Position numbers and translations under genes: made by a program. A DNA stretch of 42,522 nt from a virus, in the IMG/VR virus record IMGVR_UViG_3300045988_097304, positions 1 through 42,522 of that record, one strand, 5' to 3'. Shown here one piece after another: positions 56 through 42,522 of the stretch; the stretch's first letter is position 1; each line of letters starts with the position of its first letter. The notes under the pieces are model-generated. The model ran no database searches. It had not been told where the DNA came from and saw nothing but the letters and a program-made list of their open reading frames with translations.

Positions 56-92
56 CTGCGAGCCTGAGATCGAGGAGGTGAGAGCGGAATGA
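1..92 (+). CDS. 3' part of the junction-spanning 78-aa Cys-rich hypothetical protein that starts at 42323
   Basis: The reading frame continues through the circular junction (..GSHDCEPEIEEVRAE) to TGA at 90..92. Confidence 0.5.
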   Translation, partial: RGCGNKDVVLCDALGSHDCEPEIEEVRAE

Positions 93-134: not shown

Positions 135-166
135 AAGGCTTGTACATCTTTGTACAAGCCTTTTTT
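135..166 (+). terminator. Rho-independent terminator ending the plus-strand cassette
   Basis: Perfect 12-bp stem AAGGCTTGTACA/TGTACAAGCCTT with loop TCTT, followed by a T-run. It lies between convergent genes. Confidence 0.8.
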
Positions 167-176
167 GCGCGCTGAA

Positions 177-611
177 TCACGCCCTCTTGCCCTTCGCCGC
201 CCTGACGACCTGCGCCTTGTATCTCCGCGCCGTCCGCTCCGCAATGCCCGCCTCCCTCCACGCCGCCTTCATCGGCATGCCGTCTACATAAAACAGCTTC
301 AGAAACGACCGCAAGCCCATGATATACTCGCCCTGCTGAGGCTGCCCCGCGACAATTGCATCCAGTGCTTTCATTGCCCGCCGCTGGGCACGCAAAAAAG
401 CCGTATGCTTTTCATACAGCTTTTTTTTCGCGTTCTGCTCTCGGACAAGCTCGTCGTCGAGTCCTCGCGCCGCACCTCTCCGCTTGGGCATGCCGTCAAA
501 TCCGCTTCCCTTGGCGTCGCGGTTGTCGTACAGCTCCAGCTCTGTTTTGTAATCGTACGCCGCAAAGCCGCAGTCAATCAACGCTTGCGCGTCCTTCTTC
601 TCGATCCGCAT
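177..611 (-). CDS. Sigma-70 region-4-like / ArpU-RinA-type transcription regulator (tentative late activator)
   Basis: The C-terminal FYVDGMPMKAAWREAGIAERTARRYKAQ looks like a sigma r4 HTH. GGGAGG RBS. It is the last gene of the early operon. Confidence 0.5.
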   Translation of the reverse strand: MRIEKKDAQALIDCGFAAYDYKTELELYDNRDAKGSGFDGMPKRRGAARGLDDELVREQNAKKKLYEKHTAFLRAQRRAMKALDAIVAGQPQQGEYIMGLRSFLKLFYVDGMPMKAAWREAGIAERTARRYKAQVVRAAKGKRA

Positions 612-1150
612 CCATCGCCGCCTCCCGTCCTCTGCTTGTCAAGCCACGTCACCCCCACCGCAATTGCCTGCCACATGTCGCCGGACACGCCGTAAAACGT
701 GTCCGGTTTTGCTTTCGTTCCCTTGCCATTGACCTTGTCATGCGCCGCAAACCTCGCAATCAGCGCGGCGCGAATCTGACCGTCTGCGTGCTTCGGCGCG
801 TTCGCCGGAAGCTCCTTTTTGCGGATGAGTGCCGCCCGCTCGTCCCGCCTGTAAATCCAGTGTACGGCAATGCCTCGCCCCTGCGCTGTCAGGTCAAATT
901 TGCCCATCCACTTAAGCGTGGTGTAGGTGCTTGCCCCGACGATTGCGCCCGCCGCGTTGCTGTCCTTTCCGTTTCGCGGATATCGCGGCTCCATGTCCTC
1001 GATGATGATCGCGTCGATCCCCGGAGTTGACGCGATGATGTCCATCATCACGCCGTTTTCAATTTTGTCCGCCGACAGCACTTGATACGCATCGTTGAGC
1101 AGCGCATACGCGCTTTGCGTCGTGCCGGGGTCTATCGCCAAAATCCTCAT
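578..1150 (-). CDS. RuvC-like Holliday junction resolvase
   Basis: N-terminus MRILAIDPGT, then the acidic IIIEDME motif. GGGAGGGG RBS lies before ATG 1150. The ORF-track start at 1192 has no RBS. Confidence 0.75.
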   Translation of the reverse strand: MRILAIDPGTTQSAYALLNDAYQVLSADKIENGVMMDIIASTPGIDAIIIEDMEPRYPRNGKDSNAAGAIVGASTYTTLKWMGKFDLTAQGRGIAVHWIYRRDERAALIRKKELPANAPKHADGQIRAALIARFAAHDKVNGKGTKAKPDTFYGVSGDMWQAIAVGVTWLDKQRTGGGDGCGSRRRTRKR

Positions 1151-9901: not shown

Positions 9902-9931
9902 AATCCCTGCCGTTGTCGGTGGGGATTTTTT
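9902..9931 (+). terminator. Rho-independent terminator (convergent with the cro-like gene end)
   Basis: AATCCCTGCCG-TTGT-CGGTGGGGATT followed by a T-run. Confidence 0.7.
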
Positions 9932-10202
9932 ACTGCGCGGCTTTTTCGTTGCCCTCCGGCATCCGGAAGATGTCGTCGCAGGTGCAGCCCAGCGTCTTGG
10001 CGATGATGGGGATGTACTCTGCTCGGATAATCTTGTGCCCAGCCATCATGCAGCTGAACGACTGTCTGGACATGCCGAGGTTGTCCGCAACCTTGCCGTG
10101 GCGAATCCCTCTTTCATCCAGAATCCGTCGGATATTGCCGATGATGATGGCGTTCCGTCGGATGTTGCCGATGATGATGGCGTTCGATGGCTTGTCTTCC
10201 AT
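9930..10202 (-). CDS. Cro-like XRE-family HTH regulator, first gene of the early operon
   Basis: IGNIRRILDERGIRHGKVADNLGMSRQSFSCMMAGHK is an XRE HTH. AAGGAG RBS. Divergent from the CI-like gene. Confidence 0.75.
   Translation of the reverse strand: MEDKPSNAIIIGNIRRNAIIIGNIRRILDERGIRHGKVADNLGMSRQSFSCMMAGHKIIRAEYIPIIAKTLGCTCDDIFRMPEGNEKAAQ
10125..10184. repeat. Tandem 30-bp in-frame duplication (29/30 identical) inside the cro-like gene
   Basis: CCGTCGGATATTGCCGATGATGATGGCGTT repeated with one A/G difference. It encodes NAIIIGNIRR twice. Confidence 0.9.
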
Positions 10203-10343: not shown

Positions 10344-10694
10344 TTGGAGAAACGGATTAAAGAGATTCGCCGTGTCTACAACCTGAATCAGACGCAATTC
10401 GCGGAAAAAATCGGGTTGAAACAGCCAACGATTGCAGGGTACGAGAATGGGAAAGACGTTCCGATGTCTACAATTGTTACGATTTGTCAGATTTTCCCTG
10501 ACATCAATAAAGTTTGGCTTTGCACTGGCGAAGGCGACATGAAGCTCGAACAGTCTGCCGAGGATGCGGAACGCATGGTCAATCTCATGCGCGGAATGAG
10601 CGAAAATAAAAAGAAGCTCTTCCGTATCCTCGTGGATATGCCGGATGAGCTTCTGGATGAAATGATTTCCTATATGAAAAAGGAAATCAAGTGA
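10344..10694 (+). CDS. CI-like XRE-family repressor (116 aa)
   Basis: RIKEIRRVYNLNQTQFAEKIGLKQPTIAGYENGK is an XRE HTH. Same orientation as the integrase, with a C-terminal extension. Confidence 0.75.
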   Translation: MEKRIKEIRRVYNLNQTQFAEKIGLKQPTIAGYENGKDVPMSTIVTICQIFPDINKVWLCTGEGDMKLEQSAEDAERMVNLMRGMSENKKKLFRILVDMPDELLDEMISYMKKEIK

Positions 10695-11361: not shown

Positions 11362-11491
11362 AAAAAAATAGCCCTGTCCGTGCGCTAACACAGACAGGAC
11401 GATGGCACCCCCCTGACAACCGCGAAAGAAGGGAACATCTATATGATACCATATTTCCCTTCCTTTCGCAACATAGAAAGGAAGATTGATT

Positions 11492-12571
11492 ATGCCGAAA
11501 ATTGAAAAGACAAAGACCGGTTACCGCGCCCGCATCTCTACGGGTGAAAAGCTCCCGTCCGGCGGATATCGCTATATTTCCGTTTCTGGCGCGACGAAAG
11601 CCGATGTAAGGCGAATGATTGCCGAGTTCGACGAGAACCGCGAAAACGCCCTTTCCGCGAATCTGGCGGGGCGTGTGACGCTGGCTCAGGCGATGGATAA
11701 ATACCTCGATACCTGCCGCTCCGCCGGTCGCTCTCCGTCCACCATTCGCGGCTATGCCGCCATGCGGCGCAACGGTTTTGAATCTCTCGAATCAAAGCCC
11801 ATCGCCAAAATTTCCCGCGCCGAATTGCAATCTGTGGTCAATGACTGGACGCGATCCGGCGCAACCCCGAAAACCGTCCGCAATAAGCTCGGCTTTCTCT
11901 CCGCTTCCATGAAGCACGCCGGAATCGAGCCGCCGACGCAAGGACTGATCCTGCCCGAACCCGACCGCAAAGAGATGACCATCCCGCAGGATGAAGACGT
12001 GCAGCGTGCGCTGTTCTACCTTCGCGCACACAACACCAACCTCTACGTCGCGGTCGTCCTTGCCGCAACGCTGGGTCTGCGCCGCGGCGAAATCGCCGCC
12101 CTGACGATGGATGACTTCGACTTCGACGCGGGAACGGTCACCATCAGCAAGTCACTCGCCATGGATGAGTGCGGCGACTATGTCACCAAAGCCCCGAAGT
12201 CCCGCAGCGGTAACCGCGTCCTGCGCGGGCTGGATGCGCTCGTCGTCTCCGCTGTCCGCAACTTCGGTCATCAGCCGCCGCAGACCATCACCGGCATGAC
12301 ACCCGCCAGCATCACAGATTCGTACATGCGCCTGTGTAACAAGCTCAATCTCCCCGGTCGCTTCCATGACCTGCGCCACTACGCCGCGTCCGTCATGGCA
12401 GCCCTCAACGTCCCGCCCAAGTACGCTCAGGAGCGCATGGGACACGCGACGCTCGACATGCTCAATCGTGTCTATCAGCACACGATGAGCAAAAAGCGCG
12501 ATGCCGTAGCCGACGCGATTGCGTCTCACAACGCCGCGCTGCTCGGCGGCAAATCCTGCCAGTACAAATAA
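11492..12571 (+). CDS. int: Tyrosine site-specific integrase
   Basis: LGLRRGEIAAL (box I Arg) and RFHDLRHYAASVM...MGHATLDMLNRVYQH (HxxR...Y). Adjacent to the attP-like region. Confidence 0.9.
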   Translation: MPKIEKTKTGYRARISTGEKLPSGGYRYISVSGATKADVRRMIAEFDENRENALSANLAGRVTLAQAMDKYLDTCRSAGRSPSTIRGYAAMRRNGFESLESKPIAKISRAELQSVVNDWTRSGATPKTVRNKLGFLSASMKHAGIEPPTQGLILPEPDRKEMTIPQDEDVQRALFYLRAHNTNLYVAVVLAATLGLRRGEIAALTMDDFDFDAGTVTISKSLAMDECGDYVTKAPKSRSGNRVLRGLDALVVSAVRNFGHQPPQTITGMTPASITDSYMRLCNKLNLPGRFHDLRHYAASVMAALNVPPKYAQERMGHATLDMLNRVYQHTMSKKRDAVADAIASHNAALLGGKSCQYK

Positions 12572-21686: not shown

Positions 21687-24600
21687 TTACTTTTGCTTTT
21701 TGATGGTCGTGCCGCCGTATGCCTGCTTGATGATGTGCGACCCCAGCGATTCGCCTGTGACGTAGAGCTCCTCATACTTGGCATACACCTCGTTCGCTTT
21801 CAGCGCAAGGCGGCACATCCTCATGCGGATGCTATTTGTCAGCTCGTATTTCTGCTCGTCCGTCAGGTCGTCCCGCCCATTGATGGCGTCGATTTGCTCA
21901 TACCCCTCGCTGATGGCTTGCTTCGCTTCGTATAGTACGCCGCCCTTGTGCGTCAGGTCGTAGGCAACGTCATATGCCTTTTGCGCCTGCCTCGGTGTCA
22001 GGTCGCCGCGCAGCATGTTAAATTCCTTGCCGTTTTCGCCCGCCTTGACCACCGTCGTCAAGAAGCTGCTGTTGTCGTATACGCGGCTTACAACGTCGTT
22101 GCTCACAAGCGGGTTGCTGGTGAGCTGTTTGCGTGCGTATGCCACTGTCGAGCTGAAGAGTGCCGTCGCCGGATTGCTTGCGTCCATGTCGCTCATCGCC
22201 GGAATGACGACCTGACCGAGATAGCCCGTATATTGCTGTGCCACATATTGCAGCATCATCGGGCTTTTGCCGATGGCTCTGCCTACCAAAACAAACAGCC
22301 CTGCCGTGTCTTCCGTGTACTGCGTAGACGGATCCCAATTTTCCATATAGCTTGGTACGATGCGGCTGCCATACCAATTCTTATTCGTCTGCATGGAGAG
22401 TATCGGGTCAGCAATCGTGCCGCTGATGGGGTACAGTCCGTCCGCAATCGTCGCCATGGATGCCGTGAAATCAATCGCCCACTCGTCGCCCTCGCCTTTC
22501 CACAGGACGTTCGTCATCAGCGAATTGACCGCGTATGCGACGGGGTCTTGCTCGACGGGAATGCGGATGAGCGGCGCATCTCCGAACACACCGGGCGCAA
22601 AGTTCGGAAGGAAAATGTGTTTGCTCTTGAGGTCGTCGCTCATGTACATGAACGCCTCTTTGTCCTCGTCGTCCATGCCGAGCAGCGCCGCATTCGCCAG
22701 CGCGACCAACGCGCCTGTATTGAGCAGTGTTTTGACAAATCGCTTTGCCGCCTGTCCGCTCTCCTGCTTTGTCCCCTGCCGCGCCGTGCGGTATGTGCCC
22801 TGCAAACTCGCGTTGAAAAACGGCACGATGTCGCTGATGTTCCTTGCGATGCCGCTTGCTCCCCTGCGGCTGAAATCGACCGTTACATCCTGCGCCGCGC
22901 GGAAGGCTTCGGCTCTGCCGGTGTCCGTCGTCAGGTCGTGCTTGCCATACCGATATTCGGCGAATCGGCTTGCCTGCTCGATGACCTCGTTCGGGTACGC
23001 CAGTGTCGCAAACTCCCATAGCTTTTTGCCAGCCCATTTCCCCTTGCCGCCGAGCGTCTGTGTCTCGTAGTTGTCCTTCCACTTGCCGTTGTCAAAGACC
23101 GCTCCGCGTATCTCCTTCGCGCTTTTGGCGTCGCCCGTAGATACTCGCGTCCAGCCGCCGCCGCCCAGCGCGACATAGTCCTTGTAGGAATCCTTGTCAG
23201 TCAAAATCTCATGTACGGCTTTCACCCATTTATACAGCCCGTCCGCATAGCTGGTTGCCCATGTGCCATAATTCACACTGCTCTGAAAGTCGCGCAAAAA
23301 GTTGCGTGCGGCAAAAACAGGGTTGCTGCCCGTCGTCAACGCGCTCATCGCATGCGTCGCCTTGCCAAGCACGTTGAAAATTGATTTTCCGTTGTCCGTC
23401 GCGTTGGTCATCATCTTGTAAAACAGCGGGTCTGTGATGGTGTAATAAGTCTTGCTTCCGTCCGGATGCTGTACTGTGATGACGTTGTTTTCGTTCGCCG
23501 TGCCGACAAATTTTGCCCTGTCCGCGTCGATGCCCAGCAGAATATCCGTCATGACGTCCTCGCTGACGTTGCCTTTTTGCAGACTCTCTCTCGCGCTTTC
23601 CATCCGCGTCAGCGTCTGCTCGTCGCTGAACGTTCCGCTTGTCTGCTCGATGGGGCGTCCCAGCACACCGAAGCCCTCATACTCCTTGTACAGGCGGTCA
23701 AACAGCAGGTTTGTCTGATTTTCCATGTTCATCCGCACGATTTTCTGCGTCATTTCGCAAAAACTGTCAAAAGGCGACACAATCTGCTCCGTGCTTCCCT
23801 TTGCGCCGCGGATGGTGTAGGTCTTCCCCCCGCCGCTCCGGCTGCTTCCGACCGGTGCGTTGTCCTTGACGCGGTTGGTCGGCACATAGCTCGGATACAT
23901 CGCTTCAAACTGCTCAAGCTGCCACGCCTTGAGATAGCCCGTATCGACCATCCACACCTGCATGAAATCGTGCCTAAAGCTCTGGAATGCCTTCTGCGCT
24001 TTGGCGAATTCGGGGTGCGCACGCTCCGTCTGCTGGATGTATGCCAGCCTCTCCGCTCGCGGGTATGTGTTGTTGTCCAATACGGGCTTGCCCTGTTTGT
24101 CGCGGTCAAGGCTGTGCTTGACGAGCATCCAGTTGAGCCATTCCTGCAAATCCTTGCCTTTTAAGCCGGATTCCTTGATGCGCTCTTTGAGACTGTCGCC
24201 GATGCGCGTTCCGCGAACGTCTGTCAGGGACTCCGTCAGCTGTGCGTATGCCCGCTTGTCCGCCGTATTGCGCAGCAGCGCACTCTCCCGCAGGTTGTCC
24301 TCAAACGCGACGACCTTTTCCCCTGTCGCGTCGCGGATGATTTTGTTCGCTTTTTCTGCCGGCGCGGTGCTGTCCACGAGCGCATAGAGAAACGCCTCGT
24401 CCAGCTTCTCATTGCTCTTGATGTCGCTTCTGTCTACGACCATCGCTCTGACCCGCTCGCTGAAGCTGGCGTTCAGGTAATTCCGGATATCCGTCTTGGC
24501 TTTGGCAATCGGCTTCTCCATGCCCGCGTCCGCGACCGCCTGCTCAAACTGCGCGAAAAATCCCTCTCCCGCAAACTCCTTCGCCGCCTCGTCGCTGACC

Positions 24601-27600
24601 ATGTATCGCCACGTAAATTCAGCCATCGCCTCTCCCGCCATCTCCGCGTCCGTGTAGTTCTGCTCCCACGATGCGTTTTCGGCTTTCAACGCCTCGACCA
24701 TCTCCGGCGTTCCGGTGATGCCCGTCCGCTCGCTGATGGCGTGTCCGATCTCGTGCATGTTGATGTCTACGCGCCCTGCGCTCACGGCGTCCGTCGCCAT
24801 GTATCGCATCGCGTCGCGATACAATCCGTGTCCGCCTTGCGCTTCGCTCATGTTCCTTGCGCCCAGCGTCGAGCCTACGCCGATATCCTGCGCAAGTTTT
24901 TTGACGGTCTTGACGATGTTGTTGTCTTTTTTGCTCTTCCCTTCCGCCTGTTCAACCTCAACCCCGCGGTAAGTCCGCCTCTGTTCACCCTGCGCACTCC
25001 TGCCGACGTCGCCCTCCATGACCGCCTTTGCCGCGCGCCGAATCTGCGCCCTGTCCTTCGGCTCTTCGACCTTTTGGTGCATCTCACGATACGACTGCTT
25101 GCGCTCCATCAGCGCACGCATGATGTCCTCGTGCGGATTAAGGCTTGCCGCGTCCATGTAACCGCCGCTTTTCTGCGCCAGCCCGACGTAAAACTGACCG
25201 TCCAGCGGAATTGCGCCGTCGGCTCTGTTTTGCGTAAAGCGCGTCCCATAAGCGGCGTTGACCCGCGAAATCGTCTTTAGCCCCGTCATGCTTAGGATGT
25301 CCGCCGCCTGCGAATCGTTGATATAGACCTTTTGACTGCGCATGGTTTGCTCCACGCCCTTTAGCGCATCGTATGTCTCTTTATCAAGCTCTTTCTGCGC
25401 CGCTTGGCTCATGTATCGCTCATAGTCCGCCTCGAGCCTTGCATTGTCGCGCTCTCGCGCCGCGTCGGTCTCAATCTCTAATTCTCCGATTTGGCGGAGC
25501 GCATCGTTTACCTCCGAAGCAAACACGTTCAGCGCGTTGTCGTCGAGCTTGCTCAGGTTTTCGTTTAAGTCCCTTTGCAGTTGTTCGATTCGCTTTGCGC
25601 TGACGGGGTCTCCGTCCTTGAGTGCCTGCGCAAGTGCCTCTGCCTGTCTGCCCGCCTTGATAATGGTGTCCATTGTCTTCAGCTCCGGCGCGTACTGCTC
25701 CTCAAATGTCGTGCTGACAACCGTCTTGCCCGGTCGCCCGTCCGATGCGGCGCGGTTTTCTTCCTGCGCGATGCCGGACGACGCTTGTTCCGCTCCACCC
25801 GTCAGCTGCACCTCAGCGTCCGGATTGGCGTACCTTGCGTCAGGCTTTGCGTTGTTGACGTACGTCGTCTTGCTGCTGCCTGTCTCGTTCGGGTACAGCG
25901 TCTCCTCAAGCTCCCAGTCGCTCCGGCTCTGCGTGTAGATGCGCTCCTTCGCACGCGCCAGCTCGACCTGACGCTCCATCTCGGCGCGCGTGTCCTCGTC
26001 AAGCCCCAGCTCCTGAGCCTGTGCAAGCCCCTGTTCAAGCCGCTCGCGCGTCTGCGTCGCTTCTTCGATTCCCGGCTCTGCAATCTCAACGCGCTCCCGT
26101 CGCAGCTCGTCTATGCGGCTCTCGATTGCCTGCTTGACGTCCTCGTCAAGCCCCATCGTCTCCGCGTCGGCGTAGCTCTGGCGCATGGCGTCCATCTCTG
26201 CGTCAATGTCCGCAATCCGGCTCATGGTCTCCATCTCCGCCTGCCACTGTGCGACCGTCTGCGCGTTCTGTTCCTTGCTGATCTGTGCGCCGCGCTTTCG
26301 CGCCTCGTCCAGTCCCTTGGCGTAGGCGTCCTCTGCCGCCGCCTTGTGCTTTCGGGCGGTGTCGGCGTACTCGTTCGCCGTCTTCTGGTTTTCGCCCATG
26401 CGCACGCGCGCCTGCTGCATGTCCTTGATTTTATCAATGTCGCCCGCCATGACCGCGTCGCTGTACGCTTCAAATTCGCTTTTCGCCGCGTCCGCCGCCT
26501 GTTGCGCCGCGTCCGCTGCCGTCTGCGCCTCCTGCTGCATGCGTACCTGCGTGTTGCCTTCCTCAAAGTGCTCCGCGCCTACGCCCGCCATTGCCGCCGC
26601 AGCCGTGTTCTGTGCGTCTTGCGCCTGCTGTGCCGTCTCGTTGACCGCCTGTGCCACTTCGGGGTTTTGCAGCGCGTCGGCAAGGCTCTCCGTCACCTCG
26701 GCAAGGTTTTCCGGCGTAACGTCCGCCGTCCCGTCCATCATCTTCTGACTGAGCGTGACGGCAGGCAGATGATACCCCGGTAGCTTGCGCCGAATCGCCA
26801 TACCCGTATAGCCCGCCAGCGTAAATACGACGCTTGCCGCCGCGCCGCCTACAAAGCTCTTGCCGCCGCTGGCGATCATCTCGGCGGGGTCAACCGACGC
26901 AAGCCCCGCCAAAACATCGCTGAATTGCGGCTTTTCGCCCGCGTCGATTTTCAGGGCAATGGGGTAGAGCATCGCGTTGTACAGGTTGGTCGCCGCGTCC
27001 TCCGCAAGCTCCTCCGTGCCCTCCTGCACCGCGTTTTTCGGGATGTCGTGCGCCAGAGCCTTAGCGTATTCAGCGAATTTGCCTCTCAGCGTCAGGGTCT
27101 TGAGCGCGTCCTGCTTGGCAAGCTGCTGCTCAAGCAGACTGCGCCCGCCAAGCAAATCGCCCTCCATTTCCGCGCCCGGCGCATTGATGACCGTGCTGAT
27201 GACCGCCGGTCCCATGGCGAGAGCCGCCGCCGTAGGCTTGCTCAGTCCGCTGCTTACAGCCGCCTCGTAATTGTCGTTCCACGCCTGCGTGCCGTAGATT
27301 GCCGCAGACGCAGCCATGGCGGGCGTTCCCGCCGCGCCCAGTGCGCCGACCGCCAGCATGCCCGTTGCGCTTCCCGCGATGCTTGCCGAGCCGCTGAACA
27401 CATTCTGCTCAAACTCGTTGCCCAGCGACGCGAAATCCGTCAGCCCCTTTTGGGCGTTGTCCATCGCGCCCATGAATGCGCGATATCCGTTGCCGATAAA
27501 GCCGTTGTCGATCTTGTAGCCGATGTCGTAGATGTCGCTGACCTGCCCGATGTTTTGCAGCAGTGCCGCGCTCTGCTCTTCGCTCAATTCGCCGCTGTTG

Positions 27601-30137
27601 GCGTACTGGATAAGCTGTTCGCGGTAGATGGCGCGTCCGTTGATTCCGTATTTGCCGTTGTAATCGCTTCGGATTTTATTGACGTTCGCCTTGTACGCCA
27701 TCGCGTCCAGCATGTTGTACGGTGCGCTGGCAAGGCTGTCCGCCGTGCTGAGTACGCCGTATGCCGCGCCCGCGCCTGCCGCAGGCAGCACACCGATGGT
27801 CGCCGCGTTGTCCTCCGGCGAGGTCAGTCCCGCCTGCGCCGTTTCGCTGCTCAAAAACGCGCTGCCGCGCCTGACCATGCGATTGTATGCCATGTCCGCA
27901 ATCTGGTCAGGGCTGGTGATGCCGCACTTCTCCAAATACTCCTGCGTCGTCATGCCGAGACTGTTTGCGATGTCCGCGTACTCGTGCAGCACGCTCTGCG
28001 CCTCGTCCGCCAGCACTTCGCGGAATTCCGTGCGCGCCTCGCCCTCAAGTCCCTCCTGCGCCGCCGCGCTGTCCGACGACCAGTATGCGCCGTCGTCCGC
28101 GTTCAGCACGTTACTCAGGTTGCGGTCAAAGATGCGGTAGCCCTCGTCGCGGTTTTCAAGCTCCAGCACCGTATACTGATTGCGGTGGTAGCGGTCATAG
28201 TATTCGTCGATTTGCTCCGGTGTCGCCGTTCCTGCCGTCACCGCGTTGACAAGGCTCTGATTCGCTTCCTCTTCCGCCTGCTTCTGCGCCTGCACCGCGC
28301 TTTTTTGCTGTTCGATGACGATTTTTTGCGCCTCGCGGATGCTCTGCGATACGGCTTTTGCGCTGTCGTGCGTGCTGAGGTAGACGTTGTACAGGTTTTT
28401 GCCGCTGGGGATGCTGACCTCTCCGCTCTCAATCCATGCGTCCGCGTCGTTGATGATCTGCATCAGCGCGAGGTAGCCCGCTCCGGCGGTCGCGTCGTCA
28501 AGCAGACCGCTTTGCAAAATGTCGAGGTCTTGCTGTATCCAGCTTCCAACGTCGCTGGGAATCGCACCCTGCGCGTAAAGCGGCTTGGCGCGGTAGTCCA
28601 TCCCGTTCGTCAATGTGCCGCCGACGTATTCCTTTTGATTCAGTAGCAGCTTGCCGCCGTTGCTGCTCAGTATGCCGTCAAGCCATTCGTGTTCTTCCTG
28701 CGTCAGCGGCTCACCGCGCAGATACATCGCAAGGGCTTCGCCGGGCGTTCCCGCGCTCTCCCTCTGTGCGATGGGCGCAGGGGTCTCGCGCTCATAAATC
28801 TGGTCAAACCAGCGCGTTCCCTCTGCCGTCTGTGCCTGTTCCTCAGCCTGAGCGGGCGTTCCCTCCGCTGTCTCCTGAAGCTGATTTATCCATCTTCCGC
28901 TGTCTTTGCTTTGCTCCTGCGGCAAGGCGATGCCCGGCGCGGTCGATGCCGTCAGCGCCGCCTGCTTAACGCCGTCTGTGCTTGCAATCTGGTCAAGGGT
29001 GCTTGCCTGCTCGGGCTGTGCGCTTTCCCTCGCGCTCTCCTTTTCGGCTTTCCGATCCTTGTCGCCGAAGAGCCATGTGAAGAAGGGGATTGCCTTTTTA
29101 CCCTCCGCTTGCGCCGTCTGGTCAAGCTCATTCCACGCCGCGATGTCCTCGTCCGTCGGCGCAGGCAGCCCCGTCGCGCTTGCCCATGCCTTGTCAAGTG
29201 CCGCACGCATGCTTCGGCTCTGCCGCTTGGAGTAGGCGACCTCATTCAGCTCGTCTCCTTCGTTGATGCTCGCCACCAGCTCAAGATACTTCTTGAGGTT
29301 GTCTTCGTCGTGCCCGCTTCCGGCATAAAACGCGGATTGGTACTCGTCTACGGCATCCGTATAAGCCTTGTCGTCCCAGTCCGCGCTGTAAAGGAACTTG
29401 TTTGCCTCGTCCTCGTCGAACGTCAAGCCGGAGTACGGGTTGTCCGGCGTCTGCGTCAGCTCGTAAAGGGCTTTGACCTTTTTCTTTCGGCTGCTGCTGT
29501 CGGGGTCGGCGCGAATGCTCTGAATGACCATGGGCAGGCTTGCGCTCGACAAATCCATGTCGTTGCCGTCCGCGTCCATCACCAGCCCGGAAGCAAGCGT
29601 CTGCATCGCGGCGTCTGCCTTTGCCGCGTTCTTGCCTTTTTCGCTTCGCGGCGCGGCGAACAGCTTGTCCCCCAGCAGCCCCTCAGCGTTGTACAGCACC
29701 TCGTCTTTGTCCTGATTGCTGTACGCCGCCCAGTCCTTGAGGAATTCTTCGGCAACGTCTTCGCTTGCCAGCGTCCCGGCAAAATATGCCGCCTGCTTGT
29801 TGTCCTTGATGGTCGAAAAGTCAACCTCAATATCCCGCGTGCCGAGGTCGCGTCTGGGCGTCATGCCCATCGCCATTCCGTCGCGCCCCGCCATTTCCGC
29901 GTCATAGTCCGCCAAGAGCTGGGCGTTGGTCTTCCCTGCCGTCTGCTCAACGGGATTGACCTTTTGCTCGGCTACGACCTTGTGTCCGGTCTGCTTCAGC
30001 GCGCCTGCCGTCTCTTTGGCATGCTCGCGCCCACGGATGACCGCCGAATTCTGCGGGTTGTCCGCAGCCGCCTGCTGCTGTGCCCGCTTCCGCTCTTCCT
30101 CTTCGCGTTTCCTGCCGAAACCCTGCATTCGCGCCAT
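21687..30137 (-). CDS. 2816-aa polyvalent virion/ejection-type protein with a HEXXH zincin module, hydrophobic segments and a long coiled coil
   Basis: Single uninterrupted ORF with a GGAGGGA RBS. HEIGH is encoded at 24741..24755. Hydrophobic stretches include SASIAGSATGMLAVGALGAAGTPAMAASAAIYG. A/E/Q-rich coiled coil of about 250 aa. Confidence 0.75.
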   Translation of the reverse strand: MARMQGFGRKREEEERKRAQQQAAADNPQNSAVIRGREHAKETAGALKQTGHKVVAEQKVNPVEQTAGKTNAQLLADYDAEMAGRDGMAMGMTPRRDLGTRDIEVDFSTIKDNKQAAYFAGTLASEDVAEEFLKDWAAYSNQDKDEVLYNAEGLLGDKLFAAPRSEKGKNAAKADAAMQTLASGLVMDADGNDMDLSSASLPMVIQSIRADPDSSSRKKKVKALYELTQTPDNPYSGLTFDEDEANKFLYSADWDDKAYTDAVDEYQSAFYAGSGHDEDNLKKYLELVASINEGDELNEVAYSKRQSRSMRAALDKAWASATGLPAPTDEDIAAWNELDQTAQAEGKKAIPFFTWLFGDKDRKAEKESARESAQPEQASTLDQIASTDGVKQAALTASTAPGIALPQEQSKDSGRWINQLQETAEGTPAQAEEQAQTAEGTRWFDQIYERETPAPIAQRESAGTPGEALAMYLRGEPLTQEEHEWLDGILSSNGGKLLLNQKEYVGGTLTNGMDYRAKPLYAQGAIPSDVGSWIQQDLDILQSGLLDDATAGAGYLALMQIINDADAWIESGEVSIPSGKNLYNVYLSTHDSAKAVSQSIREAQKIVIEQQKSAVQAQKQAEEEANQSLVNAVTAGTATPEQIDEYYDRYHRNQYTVLELENRDEGYRIFDRNLSNVLNADDGAYWSSDSAAAQEGLEGEARTEFREVLADEAQSVLHEYADIANSLGMTTQEYLEKCGITSPDQIADMAYNRMVRRGSAFLSSETAQAGLTSPEDNAATIGVLPAAGAGAAYGVLSTADSLASAPYNMLDAMAYKANVNKIRSDYNGKYGINGRAIYREQLIQYANSGELSEEQSAALLQNIGQVSDIYDIGYKIDNGFIGNGYRAFMGAMDNAQKGLTDFASLGNEFEQNVFSGSASIAGSATGMLAVGALGAAGTPAMAASAAIYGTQAWNDNYEAAVSSGLSKPTAAALAMGPAVISTVINAPGAEMEGDLLGGRSLLEQQLAKQDALKTLTLRGKFAEYAKALAHDIPKNAVQEGTEELAEDAATNLYNAMLYPIALKIDAGEKPQFSDVLAGLASVDPAEMIASGGKSFVGGAAASVVFTLAGYTGMAIRRKLPGYHLPAVTLSQKMMDGTADVTPENLAEVTESLADALQNPEVAQAVNETAQQAQDAQNTAAAAMAGVGAEHFEEGNTQVRMQQEAQTAADAAQQAADAAKSEFEAYSDAVMAGDIDKIKDMQQARVRMGENQKTANEYADTARKHKAAAEDAYAKGLDEARKRGAQISKEQNAQTVAQWQAEMETMSRIADIDAEMDAMRQSYADAETMGLDEDVKQAIESRIDELRRERVEIAEPGIEEATQTRERLEQGLAQAQELGLDEDTRAEMERQVELARAKERIYTQSRSDWELEETLYPNETGSSKTTYVNNAKPDARYANPDAEVQLTGGAEQASSGIAQEENRAASDGRPGKTVVSTTFEEQYAPELKTMDTIIKAGRQAEALAQALKDGDPVSAKRIEQLQRDLNENLSKLDDNALNVFASEVNDALRQIGELEIETDAARERDNARLEADYERYMSQAAQKELDKETYDALKGVEQTMRSQKVYINDSQAADILSMTGLKTISRVNAAYGTRFTQNRADGAIPLDGQFYVGLAQKSGGYMDAASLNPHEDIMRALMERKQSYREMHQKVEEPKDRAQIRRAAKAVMEGDVGRSAQGEQRRTYRGVEVEQAEGKSKKDNNIVKTVKKLAQDIGVGSTLGARNMSEAQGGHGLYRDAMRYMATDAVSAGRVDINMHEIGHAISERTGITGTPEMVEALKAENASWEQNYTDAEMAGEAMAEFTWRYMVSDEAAKEFAGEGFFAQFEQAVADAGMEKPIAKAKTDIRNYLNASFSERVRAMVVDRSDIKSNEKLDEAFLYALVDSTAPAEKANKIIRDATGEKVVAFEDNLRESALLRNTADKRAYAQLTESLTDVRGTRIGDSLKERIKESGLKGKDLQEWLNWMLVKHSLDRDKQGKPVLDNNTYPRAERLAYIQQTERAHPEFAKAQKAFQSFRHDFMQVWMVDTGYLKAWQLEQFEAMYPSYVPTNRVKDNAPVGSSRSGGGKTYTIRGAKGSTEQIVSPFDSFCEMTQKIVRMNMENQTNLLFDRLYKEYEGFGVLGRPIEQTSGTFSDEQTLTRMESARESLQKGNVSEDVMTDILLGIDADRAKFVGTANENNVITVQHPDGSKTYYTITDPLFYKMMTNATDNGKSIFNVLGKATHAMSALTTGSNPVFAARNFLRDFQSSVNYGTWATSYADGLYKWVKAVHEILTDKDSYKDYVALGGGGWTRVSTGDAKSAKEIRGAVFDNGKWKDNYETQTLGGKGKWAGKKLWEFATLAYPNEVIEQASRFAEYRYGKHDLTTDTGRAEAFRAAQDVTVDFSRRGASGIARNISDIVPFFNASLQGTYRTARQGTKQESGQAAKRFVKTLLNTGALVALANAALLGMDDEDKEAFMYMSDDLKSKHIFLPNFAPGVFGDAPLIRIPVEQDPVAYAVNSLMTNVLWKGEGDEWAIDFTASMATIADGLYPISGTIADPILSMQTNKNWYGSRIVPSYMENWDPSTQYTEDTAGLFVLVGRAIGKSPMMLQYVAQQYTGYLGQVVIPAMSDMDASNPATALFSSTVAYARKQLTSNPLVSNDVVSRVYDNSSFLTTVVKAGENGKEFNMLRGDLTPRQAQKAYDVAYDLTHKGGVLYEAKQAISEGYEQIDAINGRDDLTDEQKYELTNSIRMRMCRLALKANEVYAKYEELYVTGESLGSHIIKQAYGGTTIKKQK

Positions 30138-37276: not shown

Positions 37277-38683
37277 TTAGTCCAGCGGATTCCACGCTTT
37301 CCGCTTCGGTTTGGGCGCGACGATCTTTGGCGCGAGCGGTCTTGACATTAAAAAGTATCGCGTCTCGTCGTAGATGTGGTCTTCGCCCGCCGTGTCGATG
37401 TCCTCAACCTTGTGTTCGTCATAGCACAGCGTCGGGATTGTGCGTATAAAGTCCGTGCAGTTGCTGAATACATACATCATCGGTCGCCCGTCCTCGTCAA
37501 ACCGCAGCCGCTCATGCACCTGCATCTTGCCCGGCATCCGCGTGTTGTCGCCTTTGCGGAACGTGACGCCGGAAAAGACCTTGCGGATCTGCTCCTCTAC
37601 GCTCGTTCCCCGACTCTCGTCCCAGATGGCAGGGTCGGCAATGCCCGTGATATGAATGCCTTCCCTGAATTCCGGCTCGAGCCAGTCCGCCAGCTTCGCC
37701 GCGATCTCTCCCGGCGTGAGCATCAAGCCGACGTTTGCCTCGCCCTTTTTGCAGCCGTACAGCTCCTTGTATCGGTATGCCCTGCCGTCAGGGTCAACCG
37801 CCCACGCGCCGAACGAAAACGGACGTGAAAAGCCGTGGTCAAAGCTGACGTACCGCGTCCAGTGCAGCGGAATGTCGAACGGGTCGATGACGTGCGTATG
37901 CAGCCCGTCCTTGTAATGCTCAGGGTCGTTTGTAAATTCCGGGAACGCCTGCCCCTCGAACGCGTCCCACTTGCCCAGCAGCAGCGCGTCCCGCAGCTTG
38001 TCGGGCTTCTGCTCCAGCTCCGCGATATACAGCTCATCAATGTGCGGGTTGTCATATACCGTCGCCGGGATGTACTCGCATACCGATTTCATCGTCTTTT
38101 TCTGCCCGTCGCGTCCGGTAATCTCCGTATCCTTGATCACCGTGTGCGTCCCGACGTCCGTTGAATCCACGAACCGCGCCTTCACCCAGCCGTGTCCGGG
38201 ACCTCCCGGGTTGCTCGCGCATCGCACACAGGGCTTGACGCCAAGGCGCAACGGCGCACGCAGTCGCGTCTTGATGTAGTTGTACATGCTTTCGCTGAAG
38301 TGCGTCAGCTCGTCAAAGTACAGCCACTGTATTTCCGCGCCCTGGTACTTGATGGTGTCGCCCTCGTCGCTCAGGTGGCAGAACCTCGCCACGCTCCCGT
38401 TGACAAACTGCATCTCATGGTTGCCGCTGTAATACTTGCCAAGCGTCTCCGGCACAATCATCCGCATCGTCTTGATGAGCGTCTGTTCCAGTTCCGGATA
38501 TGTCCGTCTGAACAGATACGCGCTTGTTCCCGGGTATTTCAGGCAGCGCATGGACGCATCCCAGCAGATGGCGTAGCTCTTTCCTCCGCCTGCCGCACCG
38601 CCGTACAGAATCTCGTTGCTCTTGCTCGCGTGAAACAGCCGCTGCTTGGCGGTCGGGCAGTAGTCAAAGACGATGCTGTTCAC
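37277..38683 (-). CDS. terL: Terminase large subunit
   Basis: Walker A ILYGGAAGGGKSY and Walker B WLYFDELTHF. A nuclease-type C-terminal half. GTG start with a GAGAGGGA RBS. Confidence 0.9.
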   Translation of the reverse strand: MNSIVFDYCPTAKQRLFHASKSNEILYGGAAGGGKSYAICWDASMRCLKYPGTSAYLFRRTYPELEQTLIKTMRMIVPETLGKYYSGNHEMQFVNGSVARFCHLSDEGDTIKYQGAEIQWLYFDELTHFSESMYNYIKTRLRAPLRLGVKPCVRCASNPGGPGHGWVKARFVDSTDVGTHTVIKDTEITGRDGQKKTMKSVCEYIPATVYDNPHIDELYIAELEQKPDKLRDALLLGKWDAFEGQAFPEFTNDPEHYKDGLHTHVIDPFDIPLHWTRYVSFDHGFSRPFSFGAWAVDPDGRAYRYKELYGCKKGEANVGLMLTPGEIAAKLADWLEPEFREGIHITGIADPAIWDESRGTSVEEQIRKVFSGVTFRKGDNTRMPGKMQVHERLRFDEDGRPMMYVFSNCTDFIRTIPTLCYDEHKVEDIDTAGEDHIYDETRYFLMSRPLAPKIVAPKPKRKAWNPLD

Positions 38684-39198
38684 GGGATAAAATCCCTCTC
38701 GTACGCCTTAACCCATTCAGGCATTTCCCCGATCGGCGCAATTCCTTTCACGGCTGGAATGTCGCTCCTCTTGTTATCGCCATGCCGCCTAATCCGCGTA
38801 ATCAGATACTCAAACTCTCTCTTCTCGAAGTTTTGAAGCCCAATGAAATACATTACGCCAATGTCCGCGCCTCCGTATTTCACGACATCGTCTGCCCCGA
38901 TTTTCCGAAAACATATTCTGTCCCCGCACGCATTCGGAATCTCATTCCCCTCGAGAGAGAACTGACAATAGAATTTCAGCAGATTTGCCACTCTACATTC
39001 CGCAATGTCCTTTTCGTCCTTGTAGAATACATAGATGTCCCACTTTTGCTTCGACAGGGTTCGTCTTCTGTTGAGCATGTTTAAAATGTGTATAAAAGCC
39101 ACGTCATATCTCTGATTTTCAACGAAGCTCTTCTCATCATTGATGAATCGTTCCTCGTCTTGGTCTACATTCAAACCGACCTCAAAACCAAATCTCAC
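38680..39198 (-). CDS. Degenerate paralog of the TerL N-terminal ATPase domain lacking Walker A/B (172 aa), low GC
   Basis: By-eye alignment to TerL residues ~22-170: VVKYGGADIGVMYFIGLQNFEKREFEYLITRIRR vs TIKYQGAEIQWLYFDELTHFSESMYNYIKTRLRA, and PIGEMPEWVKAYE vs PGGPGHGWVKARF. Confidence 0.55.
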   Translation of the reverse strand: MRFGFEVGLNVDQDEERFINDEKSFVENQRYDVAFIHILNMLNRRRTLSKQKWDIYVFYKDEKDIAECRVANLLKFYCQFSLEGNEIPNACGDRICFRKIGADDVVKYGGADIGVMYFIGLQNFEKREFEYLITRIRRHGDNKRSDIPAVKGIAPIGEMPEWVKAYERDFIP

Positions 39199-39635: not shown

Positions 39636-39672
39636 GCCTATCCCTCCTTTTTTTGACCTGCCCTTTGGGTAT

Positions 39673-39707
39673 AAAAAAATTCCAGAAACTCGTGTGAGTT
39701 CTGGAAT
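39673..39707 (-). terminator. Rho-independent terminator ~40 nt upstream of terS
   Basis: Minus-strand TTCCAGAAC..GTTTCTGGAA hairpin followed by T7. Confidence 0.65.
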
Positions 39708-40007
39708 AGTGCTTATGTGTTCTGCTTTCTTCGCGTTTTTGCTTCCTGCTTGACCGGCAGGGGAGACGCCCGCAGGGCGGGGAGGCATATGTCCTTCGCC
39801 CGTAGGCGCGCCTGAGGTGGTCAATTCCGCATCCCCCGCCGCCCTTCCGCAAATCTGCTTTCAAAATTCTGCCTTTCGCGCGTCCCCGCGCCTGCCTGCC
39901 CGTCCGCGTGTGAGCAAGGGCTTGCCTTGTGCGGGTACGCATCCCACACGCTAGCCCTCGTCAATCCCAGCAATATCTACATTATCAGACCATCAGCCCC
40001 GCCGTGC

Positions 40008-40027
40008 GTCATAATCCGCGGCATAAT
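40008..40027 (-). repeat. Arm-like repeat copy 3 (inverted), identical to copy 2
   Basis: GTCATAATCCGCGGCATAAT is the reverse complement of ATTATGCCGCGGATTATGAC. Identity extends to 23 nt. Confidence 0.9.
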
Positions 40028-40493
40028 CGCCGCGAATCCTCCCTATGTGAATACGCTCGGCGCACGTCCGCCCGCCTGGTGCGTCCGCAGCTGTGAGCCT
40101 GCGCGCACCGCCTGAGTTGGTGCCGTCTCTACCTATATCATCAGCACCCCCCAGCCCCCGCGCACATCGGCGCGCGGTGAAGCCTGCGCCCCTGCGCCTG
40201 CTCGCCCTCTGCGCCTGTCCCTGCGCTCCTGCGCGCGTCCGATCTGCCCCGCGTCAGCTGGTGCGCGTGCTTGTGCGCTCGATTGGCGGCTAGATATAGG
40301 TAAGCGGCTGCACAGCGCAAGCCGCACAGCCGCAAAAACGTATAATCGCCGCCCTGAGGCGGCGACGAAGTCCGCGACCTCGTCCCGCCGTCGGGGACGA
40401 TTATACTGTAACATACTGTCAAGCGTGCCGCAACATGTCCCACCCTGCCAACCCTCAGCGCGTGCGAGGGGAGCGGATCGGCGACCGGAAGCG

Positions 40494-40529
40494 AAACAAA
40501 AAGCCCCGGCGAGCGTCTGCCCGTCGGGG
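40494..40529 (-). terminator. Rho-independent terminator of the RHH gene
   Basis: Minus-strand CCCCGACGGG..CTCGCCGGGG hairpin followed by CTTTTTGTTT. Confidence 0.6.
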
Positions 40530-40534
40530 TGTTG

Positions 40535-40747
40535 TCATGGGGTCTTGTCGTCTCCAGCGTCCGGAGCTGCTGGAGGCAGATGTGGTCTGAGTGTGTCCAA
40601 TATATACCGCTGGACGGATAGCCCAGCAGATGCAGCGGCTGCGCGTATGCGTGCGCCCTCTGCCTTGTCCGGTCTGATCATGATATTGTCGTGATCTCTG
40701 ATATACTGCGCATCATATGCAGCCTTATGCCGCAGATCCCTAGCCAT
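40535..40747 (-). CDS. Ribbon-helix-helix (CopG/Arc-like) DNA-binding protein (70 aa)
   Basis: AAYDAQYIRDHDNIMIRPDKAEGARIRAAAASAGLSVQRYILDTL matches the beta-strand/helix/helix pattern of small plasmid/phage RHH regulators. Confidence 0.55.
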   Translation of the reverse strand: MARDLRHKAAYDAQYIRDHDNIMIRPDKAEGARIRAAAASAGLSVQRYILDTLRPHLPPAAPDAGDDKTP

Positions 40748-40842
40748 ATAATCACCCCCAAGGTTATCTTACCATGCGGCAGAACGGCTGTTAATAGTAA
40801 TGATGTACAAAAAAGACTGTTAACGTTTGTATGGCTTGACGG

Positions 40843-40871
40843 TAGACAAAAGACTGTTAACAGTCTATACT
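40843..40871 (+). promoter_or_regulatory. Promoter TAGACA-17-TATACT of the plus-strand cassette with an operator in the spacer
   Basis: TAGACA at 40843..40848 and TATACT at 40866..40871. The perfect palindrome GACTGTTAACAGTC at 40852..40865 fills the spacer. Confidence 0.5.
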
Positions 40872-40942
40872 GTAAGCACAACAAGGGCAACAGCCCAGAC
40901 AACCGCGACCGCCCCCCAAGAGGGGCAGAAAGGAACGATATT

Positions 40943-41344
40943 ATGAAGACCACTTATGACAGCATCCGTGAAGCGCTGGAAGCCCGCAAAGACCGTAGCG
41001 CGTGGGATCGCGGCGTGACGCAATACGCGCTCGAGCTGGTGGAGCAGCTGGAGACTTACGCCTCTTATGAGGGGCGCGACCCCCAGACGGGCAGCGAGTG
41101 CCGGGCGTGGATGCTCAACGGCGCGAAAGACTGGGCGGCGTACAGCTGGGGCGGCTCATCCTTGATCTATAACAAGGACATCGCCGAGCGTCTCTGCTCC
41201 CCGTCTGAGTTGCGCAAGTCCCGCAACGGCGAGCGCAGACCCAACAGCCGCGAAGAGTGGCTTGATACCCAAGCGCGCGCACTCTGTCAGGCTTGTGACC
41301 GCGTGACCCGTATATATGCGCAGGTGCTGACCGCTGCGGACTGA
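40943..41344 (+). CDS. Cassette gene 1, hypothetical (133 aa)
   Basis: GAAAGGAA RBS. MKTTYDSIREALEARKDRSAWDRGV... No motif recognised. Confidence 0.6.
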   Translation: MKTTYDSIREALEARKDRSAWDRGVTQYALELVEQLETYASYEGRDPQTGSECRAWMLNGAKDWAAYSWGGSSLIYNKDIAERLCSPSELRKSRNGERRPNSREEWLDTQARALCQACDRVTRIYAQVLTAAD

Positions 41345-41430
41345 CACCGCGCCCGAGGTTTTCAGGATGCCCGGCAAACTGGGCATCCCACAAAGCCCCG
41401 GAAAAGGGCTGTAAAGGAGGTTGACCGCAT

Positions 41431-41673
41431 ATGGACAACGCTTTCGCTTTCGATTTCTTTATTTACTCCCGCCCGGCGGGGGAGAAGCGTTTTTTGCTCA
41501 CCGATTTGGCGCGGGGCACCGTCGGCATGGGCAAGGCTTACGCCCCGCGCTACCGCAAGGAACAGCTCGACCAGCTCAAACAGCTGCTTAACCTTGCCGC
41601 CGCCACTTACCCCGGCACGGCTTTCCAACTGCGCCGCCTCGACGGAAAGACCGTTGTATACACGGCGCAATGA
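41431..41673 (+). CDS. Cassette gene 2, hypothetical (80 aa)
   Basis: AAAGGAGG RBS. Confidence 0.6.
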   Translation: MDNAFAFDFFIYSRPAGEKRFLLTDLARGTVGMGKAYAPRYRKEQLDQLKQLLNLAAATYPGTAFQLRRLDGKTVVYTAQ

Positions 41674-41778
41674 TCCCGCCCCGCTCTTCTGAGCGGGAAA
41701 AACCAAAAAAGTATCGCAATGCTTGGCACATTGTGATACTATAATATCAGCGTCCCCCGTGTTAGGGGAAAGAAAGGA

Positions 41779-42297
41779 ATGACTTTGATGGAATATGTAT
41801 TCAACATGGCGCTTAATTCTTGCGCCCCGTATTGCGCAAAGAGCTTTGCCCCGCCTCAGTTGCCCGATAAATATGCGATCTCGGCTTTTTTCGGCGGGCT
41901 TAACCGCTCCGAACGCACCCCTGCTCTCAACCGCGTTGAACACGAGCATGACATCATCATGTTTTGCGTGGCTGTCGATATCCCTGACGATCTCGGCATC
42001 TCCCGCGACGCTCTCAACGCGCTGATCCGCAAAGGTCACCAGACGACGGACGGCAAAGGTAATTACTGCTATATCATTACGCCGATGCTTGCGTGGGATT
42101 TCACGCCGGGGCAGAGCACGGACGGCATCCTAGCTGATGCCGTGTCCTGGATGTCCGCTCTCCATACCGTCAAGCTGTCCTATCCCGATAACGGCGAGCG
42201 CAAAACCGTTCCGCTGTCGGTCAAAAATTGGTGGATAACAGGCGGACGCTTCCCCATCGGCGACGAATATGGATACTATGCCAGACATAACAAGTAA
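41779..42297 (+). CDS. Cassette gene 3, hypothetical (172 aa)
   Basis: GAAAGAAAGGA RBS region. The start could be ATG 41788. Confidence 0.6.
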   Translation: MTLMEYVFNMALNSCAPYCAKSFAPPQLPDKYAISAFFGGLNRSERTPALNRVEHEHDIIMFCVAVDIPDDLGISRDALNALIRKGHQTTDGKGNYCYIITPMLAWDFTPGQSTDGILADAVSWMSALHTVKLSYPDNGERKTVPLSVKNWWITGGRFPIGDEYGYYARHNK

Positions 42298-42322
42298 ACA
42301 TTCGCATAGGAGGAAAAAAATC

Positions 42323-42522
42323 ATGAATAATATGACACTGAAAAAGGGGTATTCGCTCGTTTGGGGCGAACCCGAGGGTTCCGGTTTTTGTGGCGACGGC
42401 ACGACTGTGCCGGTGTCCCTTGTTCGCGAGGGGCAGATTGTGGCAAAGTTTGTCACCTGCCCTTGCGGTCGCGGCTGCGGCAACAAAGACGTCGTGTTGT
42501 GCGACGCTTTGGGCAGCCATGA
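42323..42522 (+). CDS. Cassette gene 4, 5' part of the 78-aa Cys-rich protein continuing at 56..92 across the circular junction
   Basis: AGGAGG RBS before ATG 42323. ..FVTCPCGRGCGNKDVVLCDALGSHDCEPE.. Confidence 0.55.
   Translation, partial: MNNMTLKKGYSLVWGEPEGSGFCGDGTTVPVSLVREGQIVAKFVTCPCGRGCGNKDVVLCDALGSH
42468..42522. repeat. Terminal overlap copy 2 (identical to 1..55)
   Basis: See copy 1. Confidence 0.95.

Follow-up and report, generated by a model that had tools for sequence, protein, structure and literature searches.

The region described here lies between the small-terminase gene (terS) and a putative late-regulator gene of IMG/VR virus record IMGVR_UViG_3300045988_097304, all 42,522 nucleotides of which (the window) were analyzed. 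From position 40535 to the end of the window and on across the junction of the circular genome, it holds a gene for a 70-aa ribbon-helix-helix (RHH) protein and, divergent from it, an operon of four small genes, referred to as cargo genes A, B, C and D. Among relatives these genes are exchanged independently of one another between shared linkers, behind a control region in which the regulator and its operators co-vary. On balance, the region is probably the exchangeable accessory-gene slot of a phage family, holding an establishment or counter-defence operon gated by the RHH repressor, which would be expressed in a burst at entry and repressed thereafter.

Slot content and exchange among relatives

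Slots, taken as the DNA between terS and the late-regulator gene, were extracted from 15 loci, the relatives having been reached via exact or near-exact copies of A and C and via late-regulator scans; slot genes were called and clustered, and the presence of A–D was checked by tblastn. The slot measured 2.7–4.9 kb in 15/15 loci, which speaks against the insertion into an otherwise empty junction that a first-pass annotation, made from the window's sequence alone, had proposed. In total, 13 distinct arrangements were found, built from ~29 plus-strand gene families (≥40 aa), none of them universal. Relative to the window, terS was 96–100% and the late regulator 92–100% identical in clade 1, and both were ~65% identical in clade 2.

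Of the 13 arrangements, C is part of 7, B of 5, and A and D of 4 each, in differing combinations. The window carries A, B, C and D, and L022 the same set without B. In L023, a different first gene precedes B, C and D. L008 has A with six unrelated genes behind it, among which are a helix-turn-helix (HTH) protein and an HNH-like one; in L015, C and D come last, after a J-domain protein and two unknowns; L016 carries an unknown, B, two unknowns and C; L031 a homologue of A (78% identical) and five other genes; and L024 and L025 none of the four. A short contig, L012, also has A and C. The four genes assort independently, and are slot occupants, not one system. The coherent four-gene cassette of the first-pass annotation was therefore given up, since this assortment takes place between near-identical flanks, and since a homologue of C stands alone elsewhere. 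Its proposed mobility as a unit fared no better: in a DNA search of phages and plasmids, two unannotated contigs of faecal phages matched gene A weakly and nothing else was found, no plasmid matched the cassette DNA or, in a protein search, A, and the phage collection gave matches to single genes only, never to the whole cassette.

The linkers between cargo genes recur in different arrangements. The first 50–60 nt of the spacer that separates A from B in the window are common to the gene pairs F2-F1, F20-F1, F2-F9, F8-F9 and F8-F3; the cargo leader stands before three different first genes (A, F20 and F6), and the terminator end stands behind four different last genes (D, F23, F15 and F9). L012 and L024 each contain an internal repeat of part of the leader. 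At positions 500-850 of L012, the 3′ half of the leader (GACAACCGCGACCGCC...CAGAAAGGA) occurs twice, before an extra 55-aa Cys-rich gene and before A, as if an insertion had recently taken place at the leader. The first cargo gene of L023 (115 aa) is unrelated to A, yet it ends in the same terminal residues, VLTAAD, and is followed by the same linker; since this ending is identical to that of A, the breakpoint is placed inside the 3′ end of the gene. Homologous recombination at the conserved linkers would be the simplest reading of these junctions, and nothing in the data indicates a dedicated recombinase.

The RHH protein and its co-varying operators

Comparison of the control regions yielded eight RHH variants, each with its own motif in two copies ~37–38 bp apart, one copy always lying within the spacer of the cargo promoter. 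The framework around these copies is constant across relatives (the ribosome-binding site (RBS) and start of the RHH gene, the conserved −10 element TATACTGTA of the cargo promoter, and the leader), while the spacer sequence and the second copy 37–38 bp upstream vary by variant, tracking the RHH protein. RHH proteins with the strand NIMIRP are accompanied by the operators CTGTTAACAG, CAGTTAACGG, GAGTTAACAT and ATTAACATTAACGT (GTTAAC or TTAAC cores), and those with SITIRP or ALTIRP by CCAGTCTACTGG, ACGTCTACGT and ACATGTCTACATGT (GTCTAC/GTAGAC cores). L017 and L023 have the first 27 RHH residues and the operator ATTAACATTAACGT in common, and differ in the C-terminal halves of the protein. Recognition of the operator by the N-terminal arm and strand would produce such a pattern. 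Above all because of the co-variation of regulator and operator, control of the cargo promoter by the RHH protein is well supported at the sequence level, and the first-pass proposal that a divergent RHH protein and palindromic operators govern the operon is strengthened by the eight specificity types.

Within the window, operator O1 is a perfect palindrome in the spacer of the cargo promoter, as had been noted, and extends over 16 bp, not 14. In relatives, the equivalent position is occupied by a differing, variant-specific repeat. Sites with ≤3 mismatches to GACTGTTAACAGTC occur three times in the whole 42.5 kb, against 0.65 expected (2/100 shuffles reach three), and the three (40786, 40815 and 40852) are clustered within 80 bp; no further copy was found elsewhere in the genome at ≤3 mismatches. 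The RHH regulon is thus likely to be local, confined to one promoter region. A promoter scan of the 3-kb region returned seven sigma-70-like sites against 1.1 expected, with the cargo promoter at the top. Because the −35 hexamers of both candidate RHH promoters fall inside the operator-like sites O2 and O3, the RHH gene may be autoregulated. An in-frame 217-aa open reading frame (ORF) upstream of A was considered as an extension of A and rejected, as it is not conserved in longer homologues, and since the extension is absent from these, the control region was taken to be non-coding. At the far end of the operon, the terminator sits between the convergent gene D and late-regulator gene, and no shuffle folded equally well.

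The RHH assignment draws on profile searches, on the alignment and on the homologue family. Sub-threshold matches to PF21983 (NikA-like), at E ≤ 0.01 and at best 2.2e-5, were given by 8/9 RHH variants; the other Pfam matches were solely to RHH families (ParD, HicB and TacA). An RHH profile searched against the PDB returned Arc alone, at E 0.57, and a search with the single RHH sequence returned nothing. The strand-helix-helix core was read from the alignment as NIMIRP / DKAEGARIRAAAASAG / LSVQRYILDTL with a G-x-S turn, and the G in the A-G-x turn is invariant among the aligned variants. Homologues form >2,000 clusters, several with a precomputed PF21983 match, and the substitutions between relatives are biased to third codon positions. 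Orphan RHH homologues (~45% identical) were also seen in bacterial chromosomes (L033-L035, positions 6001-6225; L036-L038, positions 6001-6219), one of them between uvrC and uvrA in at least 23 contigs and another just outside a prophage integrase.

Cargo genes and the surrounding phage genome

Coordinates of all features are collected in Table 1. The RHH ORF, the promoter, the palindrome with its two related sites, the terminators and the four cargo ORFs were all recovered where the first-pass annotation had placed them, and its ORF lengths stood for A, B and D; for C, a start at 41788 is likelier than the one at 41779, because all eight homologues begin at this second ATG (MEH...).

Table 1. 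Positions of the slot features and of neighbouring genes in the window
Feature	Position	Strand	Remarks
terL	37277..38683		
terS, small terminase, 144 aa	39201..39635	-	HTH_28 and other HTH Pfam families; phrog_2538; left conserved slot flank
terS upstream element	40345..40423	-	CTTGACA-N11-TATAAT motif at 40423..40400, then ~55-nt hairpin and U-run
RHH-gene intrinsic terminator	40495..40529	-	hairpin CCCCG.CGGGC/GCUCG.CGGGG + U5, z -3.4; conserved in relatives
RHH repressor gene, 70 aa	40535..40747	-	monocistronic, divergent from cargo operon
Candidate leftward RHH promoters	40766..40823	-	TTAACA-18-TACTAT and TTAACA-17-TAAGAT, overlapping; predicted by promoter scan
Operator-like site O3, GGCTGTTAATAGTA	40786..40799	.	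3 mismatches to palindrome
Operator-like site O2, AAGACTGTTAACGTTT	40813..40828	.	left half as in O1; starts 37 bp upstream of O1
Cargo promoter, TAGACA-17-TATACT	40843..40871	+	top sigma-70-like site, 10/12
Operator O1, AGACTGTTAACAGTCT	40851..40866	.	16-bp perfect palindrome within cargo-promoter spacer
Cargo 5′ leader	40872..40942	+	GGGC/GCCC and CCCCC/GGGGG hairpins and RBS; z -2.65; also recombination junction
Cargo gene A, 133 aa	40943..41344	+	member of a very large unnamed all-alpha family
A-B linker	41345..41430	+	10-bp hairpin; joins five different pairs of genes among relatives
Cargo gene B, 80 aa	41431..41673	+	phrog_35407 (unknown function)
CTTGGCA-N11-TATAAT motif	41722..41745	+	upstream of C; like the terS-leader motif
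Cargo gene C, 169 aa	41788..42297	+	172 aa from 41779; nine homologue clusters
Cargo gene D, 78 aa	42323..42522 then 56..92	+	six Cys; stop codon 90-92
Operon terminator	135..166	+	12-bp perfect stem + U6; dG -21.6, z -5.7
Putative late regulator, 144 aa	177..611	-	final gene of early block; right conserved slot flank
Holliday-junction resolvase	578..1150		
Cro-like gene	9930..10202		
cI-like repressor	10344..10694	+	
Tyrosine integrase	11486..12571	+	

Searches of the RHH protein and A–D against Pfam, PHROGs and PADLOC returned only weak RHH matches and one PHROG of unknown function (B), and none of the five proteins matched PADLOC-DB v2. The cargo proteins had no match to a known defence, anti-defence or housekeeping family or to a solved fold. 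Their accessory nature, as predicted in the first-pass annotation, is borne out to the extent that no housekeeping function was matched in Pfam or PHROG; the defence system it had suggested was not recovered. For sibling cargo, Pfam and PHROG matches were limited to a J domain, an HTH domain and an HNH-like match, apart from families of unknown function; PADLOC, run on ten sibling proteins, gave generic HTH models for one and a weak ZorC1 'EH signature' for the J-domain protein. Substitutions between relatives in B and C lie mainly at third codon positions; D had too few differences to judge.

Gene A belongs to a family of 3,595 homologue clusters at 90% identity, or 1,282 at 50%. Its AlphaFold2 model is all-alpha (predicted local distance difference test (pLDDT) 80, predicted template-modelling score (pTM) 0.76), and that of C is weak (pLDDT 63). 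The structural comparison suggested for the cargo in the first-pass annotation was made with these two models and left both without a fold match, Foldseek searches with A giving no match better than E 0.08 in the PDB and BFVD. Single-sequence PDB searches with A and with C returned nothing, A-family profiles (A1 and A4) nothing meaningful, and A had no Pfam, PHROG or PADLOC match. In prophage L001, as in phages of Eggerthella and Parabacteroides, homologues of A are embedded in series of small genes. Over 148 representatives (P0130-P0279), the A domain is mostly C-terminal in longer proteins with variable N-terminal partners, which include DUF3849 (11/148), a J domain and zinc ribbons; an AcrIC5 anti-CRISPR domain stands beside it in 1/148 (E 1.5e-21). 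Two identities were rejected for A. DUF3849 (PF12960), of which a literature search found no mention, covers the N-terminal partner (residues ~8-107), an extension absent from the window's A. Tad3, the type I Thoeris inhibitor (PF25185), gave sub-threshold matches to three remote A homologues (14 bits, E 0.005-0.03, cut-off 27 bits), and the window's A showed no match to it at E ≤ 1 and no fold match.

Homologues of B were found in L016, L023, L029, L030 and Faecalibacterium phage FP_Toutatis. In the last (L032, MG711466.1 18290-18478), the B homologue lies in a small-gene block convergent with an 'antiterminator Q protein' gene, and a similar reverse-oriented block may therefore stand next to the late regulator of this cultured phage.

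Gene C has a homologue, P0126 (55% identical), that is a lone opposite-strand gene between the late and early genes of an unrelated prophage (L003-L006), with a consensus promoter (TTTACA-17-TATAAT) and a strong hairpin-T12 terminator of its own; with this promoter-gene-terminator layout it behaves as a classical moron. Upstream of C in the window, a motif of the CTTGRCA-N11-TATAAT type occurs, which has two matches in the window against 0.00 expected; across 31 loci it is confined to two places, ahead of the terS leader and ahead of C. The copy at C shows homology to the promoter of the solitary C homologue in L003, and is probably a remnant or variant of C's own promoter, from which C may be expressed separately. 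Since the same unusual motif is found at the terS leader, C and D might be co-regulated with the late operon. D itself was found only beside C (L015, L022 and L023), with no homologue in the phage collection.

The first 55 bases of the contig recur at its end (1-55 copy 42468-42522), so the genome was taken as circular, with 42,467 bp. By codon-usage gene calling, the minus strand holds nearly all genes. The integrase, the cI-like and Cro-like genes, terS, terL and the other identified genes point to a temperate siphovirus-like phage. The first-pass statement that the cassette is transcribed against the rest of the genome is correct for the lytic genes, to which it is opposite; the cI-like and integrase genes are also on the plus strand. 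The late regulator was matched only weakly to phrog_36 (transcriptional regulators, E 2.6e-4), and its earlier label 'sigma-like' comes down to this match. Across relatives, terS was 62–100% and the late regulator 64–100% identical. A first scan of the genome collection gave no match, a profile scan of it gave one relative, a prophage in an uncultured Clostridia metagenome-assembled genome, and a search with terL gave distant relatives only.

Upstream of terS, a ~900-bp non-coding spacer (39636-40534) separates the gene from the RHH gene. It contains a 42-aa ORF (39821-39949, minus strand) that recurs in close relatives; since these are near-identical in DNA, the recurrence is uninformative, and the ORF is probably not a gene. 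The terS upstream element borders the slot and is outside the cassette. Its hairpin (dG -39.3 kcal/mol, z -3.5) has four pairs with compensatory changes among 10 relatives, a terminator-like site lies within it at 40366..40345, and its motif is kept in both clades despite flanking proteins only ~65% identical. The N11 spacing of the CTTGACA and TATAAT elements is unsuited to a standard sigma-70 promoter, and the element may be a late-operon leader or an antitermination target. Rfam gave no match (gathering threshold, also E ≤ 1), and a tRNA scan found none. Two further genes were noted on the minus strand: a 172-aa gene between terS and terL (38680-39198), conserved in relatives and without a Pfam or PHROG match, and, in the tail region, a lone tape-measure-like ORF of 2,816 aa (21687-30137), unusually long for a 42-kb phage and possibly fused to other tail functions.

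Explanations and known systems

In the favoured account, a fixed control head would consist of the monocistronic RHH gene, two to three operators, a strong sigma-A-type promoter and the conserved leader, and would be followed by small genes placed by recombination (here A, B, C and D) and a fixed terminator. An RHH dimer on the spacer-filling palindrome would block RNA polymerase at the cargo promoter, and the upstream sites overlapping the −35 elements of the RHH gene's candidate promoters would provide autoregulation. Upon entry into an RHH-free cell, a burst of cargo transcription would be shut off as RHH accumulates, and in the lysogen the cargo would be held low. Cargo would turn over by homologous recombination at the hairpin linkers, leader and terminator, and the cargo genes would act independently, their likeliest role, for A above all, being establishment, host takeover or counter-defence. 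An entry or early-infection role is suggested by the promiscuity of the A domain, its position among small genes elsewhere and the tight-repressor architecture; taken by itself, this role has at best an even chance, and perhaps somewhat less.

Several points weigh against this account. Most relatives are metagenomic contigs from similar samples, and the exchange events among them may not all be independent. The operator half-sites in relatives were assigned by eye from aligned sequences, and the Pfam matches of the RHH protein all fall under the curated cut-off (best 24.9 bits vs 27). 'Establishment or counter-defence' is read from genomic context, the cargo proteins being without recognizable function. 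The cargo operon is co-oriented with cI and integrase, an orientation typical of prophage-expressed genes, and the promoter-like element of C together with its free-standing homologue fits lysogenic conversion or prophage-encoded defence.

The last two points lead to the strongest alternative, in which the cargo, C and D especially, are morons expressed from the prophage at a steady, autoregulated level that RHH merely sets, and would benefit the host or prophage by excluding superinfection, by defending against other phages or by some other trait of lysogenic conversion. Variable hotspots of temperate phages often carry defence genes, and the operon's orientation opposite to all lytic genes, the promoter-like element retained by C in the window and the solitary P0126 with its own promoter and terminator all agree with such a role. 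Against it, PADLOC found nothing for the window proteins, and its matches among sibling cargo were either generic (HTH) or weak (ZorC1); a spacer-filling operator with further sites suggests tight repression, not steady expression; other phages, some of which were isolated from sewage on a host, carry homologues of A in their early regions; and A–D, read by eye, show no obvious signal peptide or transmembrane segment, unlike many exclusion proteins. This alternative is possible and, in our judgement, unlikely.

A stronger version of the favoured account is, if anything, slightly more doubtful than the moron explanation. It would make the slot a counter-defence or establishment island of gut Clostridia phages, in which A would be a new widespread inhibitor or host-takeover domain of phages of Firmicutes, Bacteroidota and Actinobacteriota, RHH/operator pairs would diversify so that an incoming burst escapes silencing by the RHH of a resident relative, orphan chromosomal RHH copies would be host decoys that are likewise evaded, and the hairpin linkers would be a dedicated cassette-exchange platform.

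The immI region of P22 consists of mnt, O-mnt, P-ant, arc and ant, with a divergent RHH repressor and a symmetric operator in a strong promoter. A secondary immunity system of this type, with a Mnt-like RHH protein silencing an antirepressor in the cargo and with RHH/operator diversity representing immunity specificities, would account for the layout, which matches mnt / O-mnt / P-ant, and for specificities that diversify like immunity determinants. It is nevertheless improbable: there is no universal cargo gene, and hence no conserved antirepressor, searches of the cargo proteins turned up no Ant, KilAC or Bro domain, and no second, Arc-like RHH gene heads the operon.

Very little speaks for a single defence or anti-defence system that has four components, is autonomous and moves as a unit: the tight packing and common orientation of the genes between one promoter and one terminator would suit it, and it is countered by their independent assortment (L022, L023, L008 and L015) and by searches that gave no plasmid match and, in the phage collection, single genes only. 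Least likely of all is a toxin-antitoxin pair with a ParD/HicB/TacA-like antitoxin, or a NikA-like relaxosome protein at an oriT-like palindrome, to which the weak Pfam matches (NikA-like, ParD, HicB, TacA) had pointed, since those matches span just the common RHH fold, the RHH gene forms a transcription unit by itself, ended by its own terminator, and diverges from the cargo instead of being bicistronic with a toxin, and no relaxase is present.

The slot is an easily recognizable site in uncultured human-gut Clostridia prophages at which ~29 families of unknown small genes gather and are exchanged, and so gives functional screens a set of candidates to try for counter-defence, host takeover or exclusion. 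The eight RHH-operator variants could serve as a natural specificity series for learning or engineering orthogonal RHH repressors, and, as the A family is large, strongly conserved and uncharacterized, identification of its target would annotate thousands of phage genes. If the cargo are ordinary morons, the slot would be a tidy and unsurprising case of phage mosaicism.

The slot was compared with four known kinds of system, to the first three of which a likeness in logic is proposed and membership is not claimed. Like P22 immI, it has a divergent RHH gene with a symmetric operator in a strong promoter, apart from the main cI/Cro immunity region; unlike immI, it has no recognizable antirepressor or Arc-like gene, and its cargo is variable. 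Aca14, an RHH protein, represses anti-defence operons via an inverted repeat in their promoter (PMC13551039, Nucleic Acids Res 2026). Here, too, a small RHH protein is paired with an inverted repeat that lies over the core promoter of a phage operon; the genes of the operon are likewise small, variable and for the most part unannotated, and the repeat's position is occupied in all relatives. The logic of an entry burst followed by repression would be alike, as judged from the architecture. Unlike in the Aca14 case, the RHH gene is divergent and monocistronic and is not the operon's last gene, the regulon would be one promoter region, and no validated anti-defence gene adjoins it in the cargo, the sole link being the remote A-family member fused to AcrIC5.

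Reg of p576, also an RHH protein, produces a transient burst of highly variable establishment genes (PMC8708921). As in Reg(p576) and clade II of the pLS20-family plasmids, the RHH repressor here would control its own promoter together with a strong cargo promoter, and the cargo, for the most part without assigned function, differs strongly from one otherwise conserved element to the next. That system differs in lying on a conjugative plasmid with several operons and an ardC anti-restriction gene always present, whereas the slot lies in a phage, with one operon and no universal gene. With the morons and hotspots of temperate phages, the slot shares a fixed position, differing content, its own transcription signals and an orientation opposite to the lytic genes; unlike these, it is headed by a dedicated repressor whose specificity has diversified, and the hairpin linkers between its genes are reusable. 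The most fitting class for the region is the repressor-gated accessory-gene hotspot of temperate phages, a known kind, within which its eight natural operator specificities and reusable linkers distinguish it.

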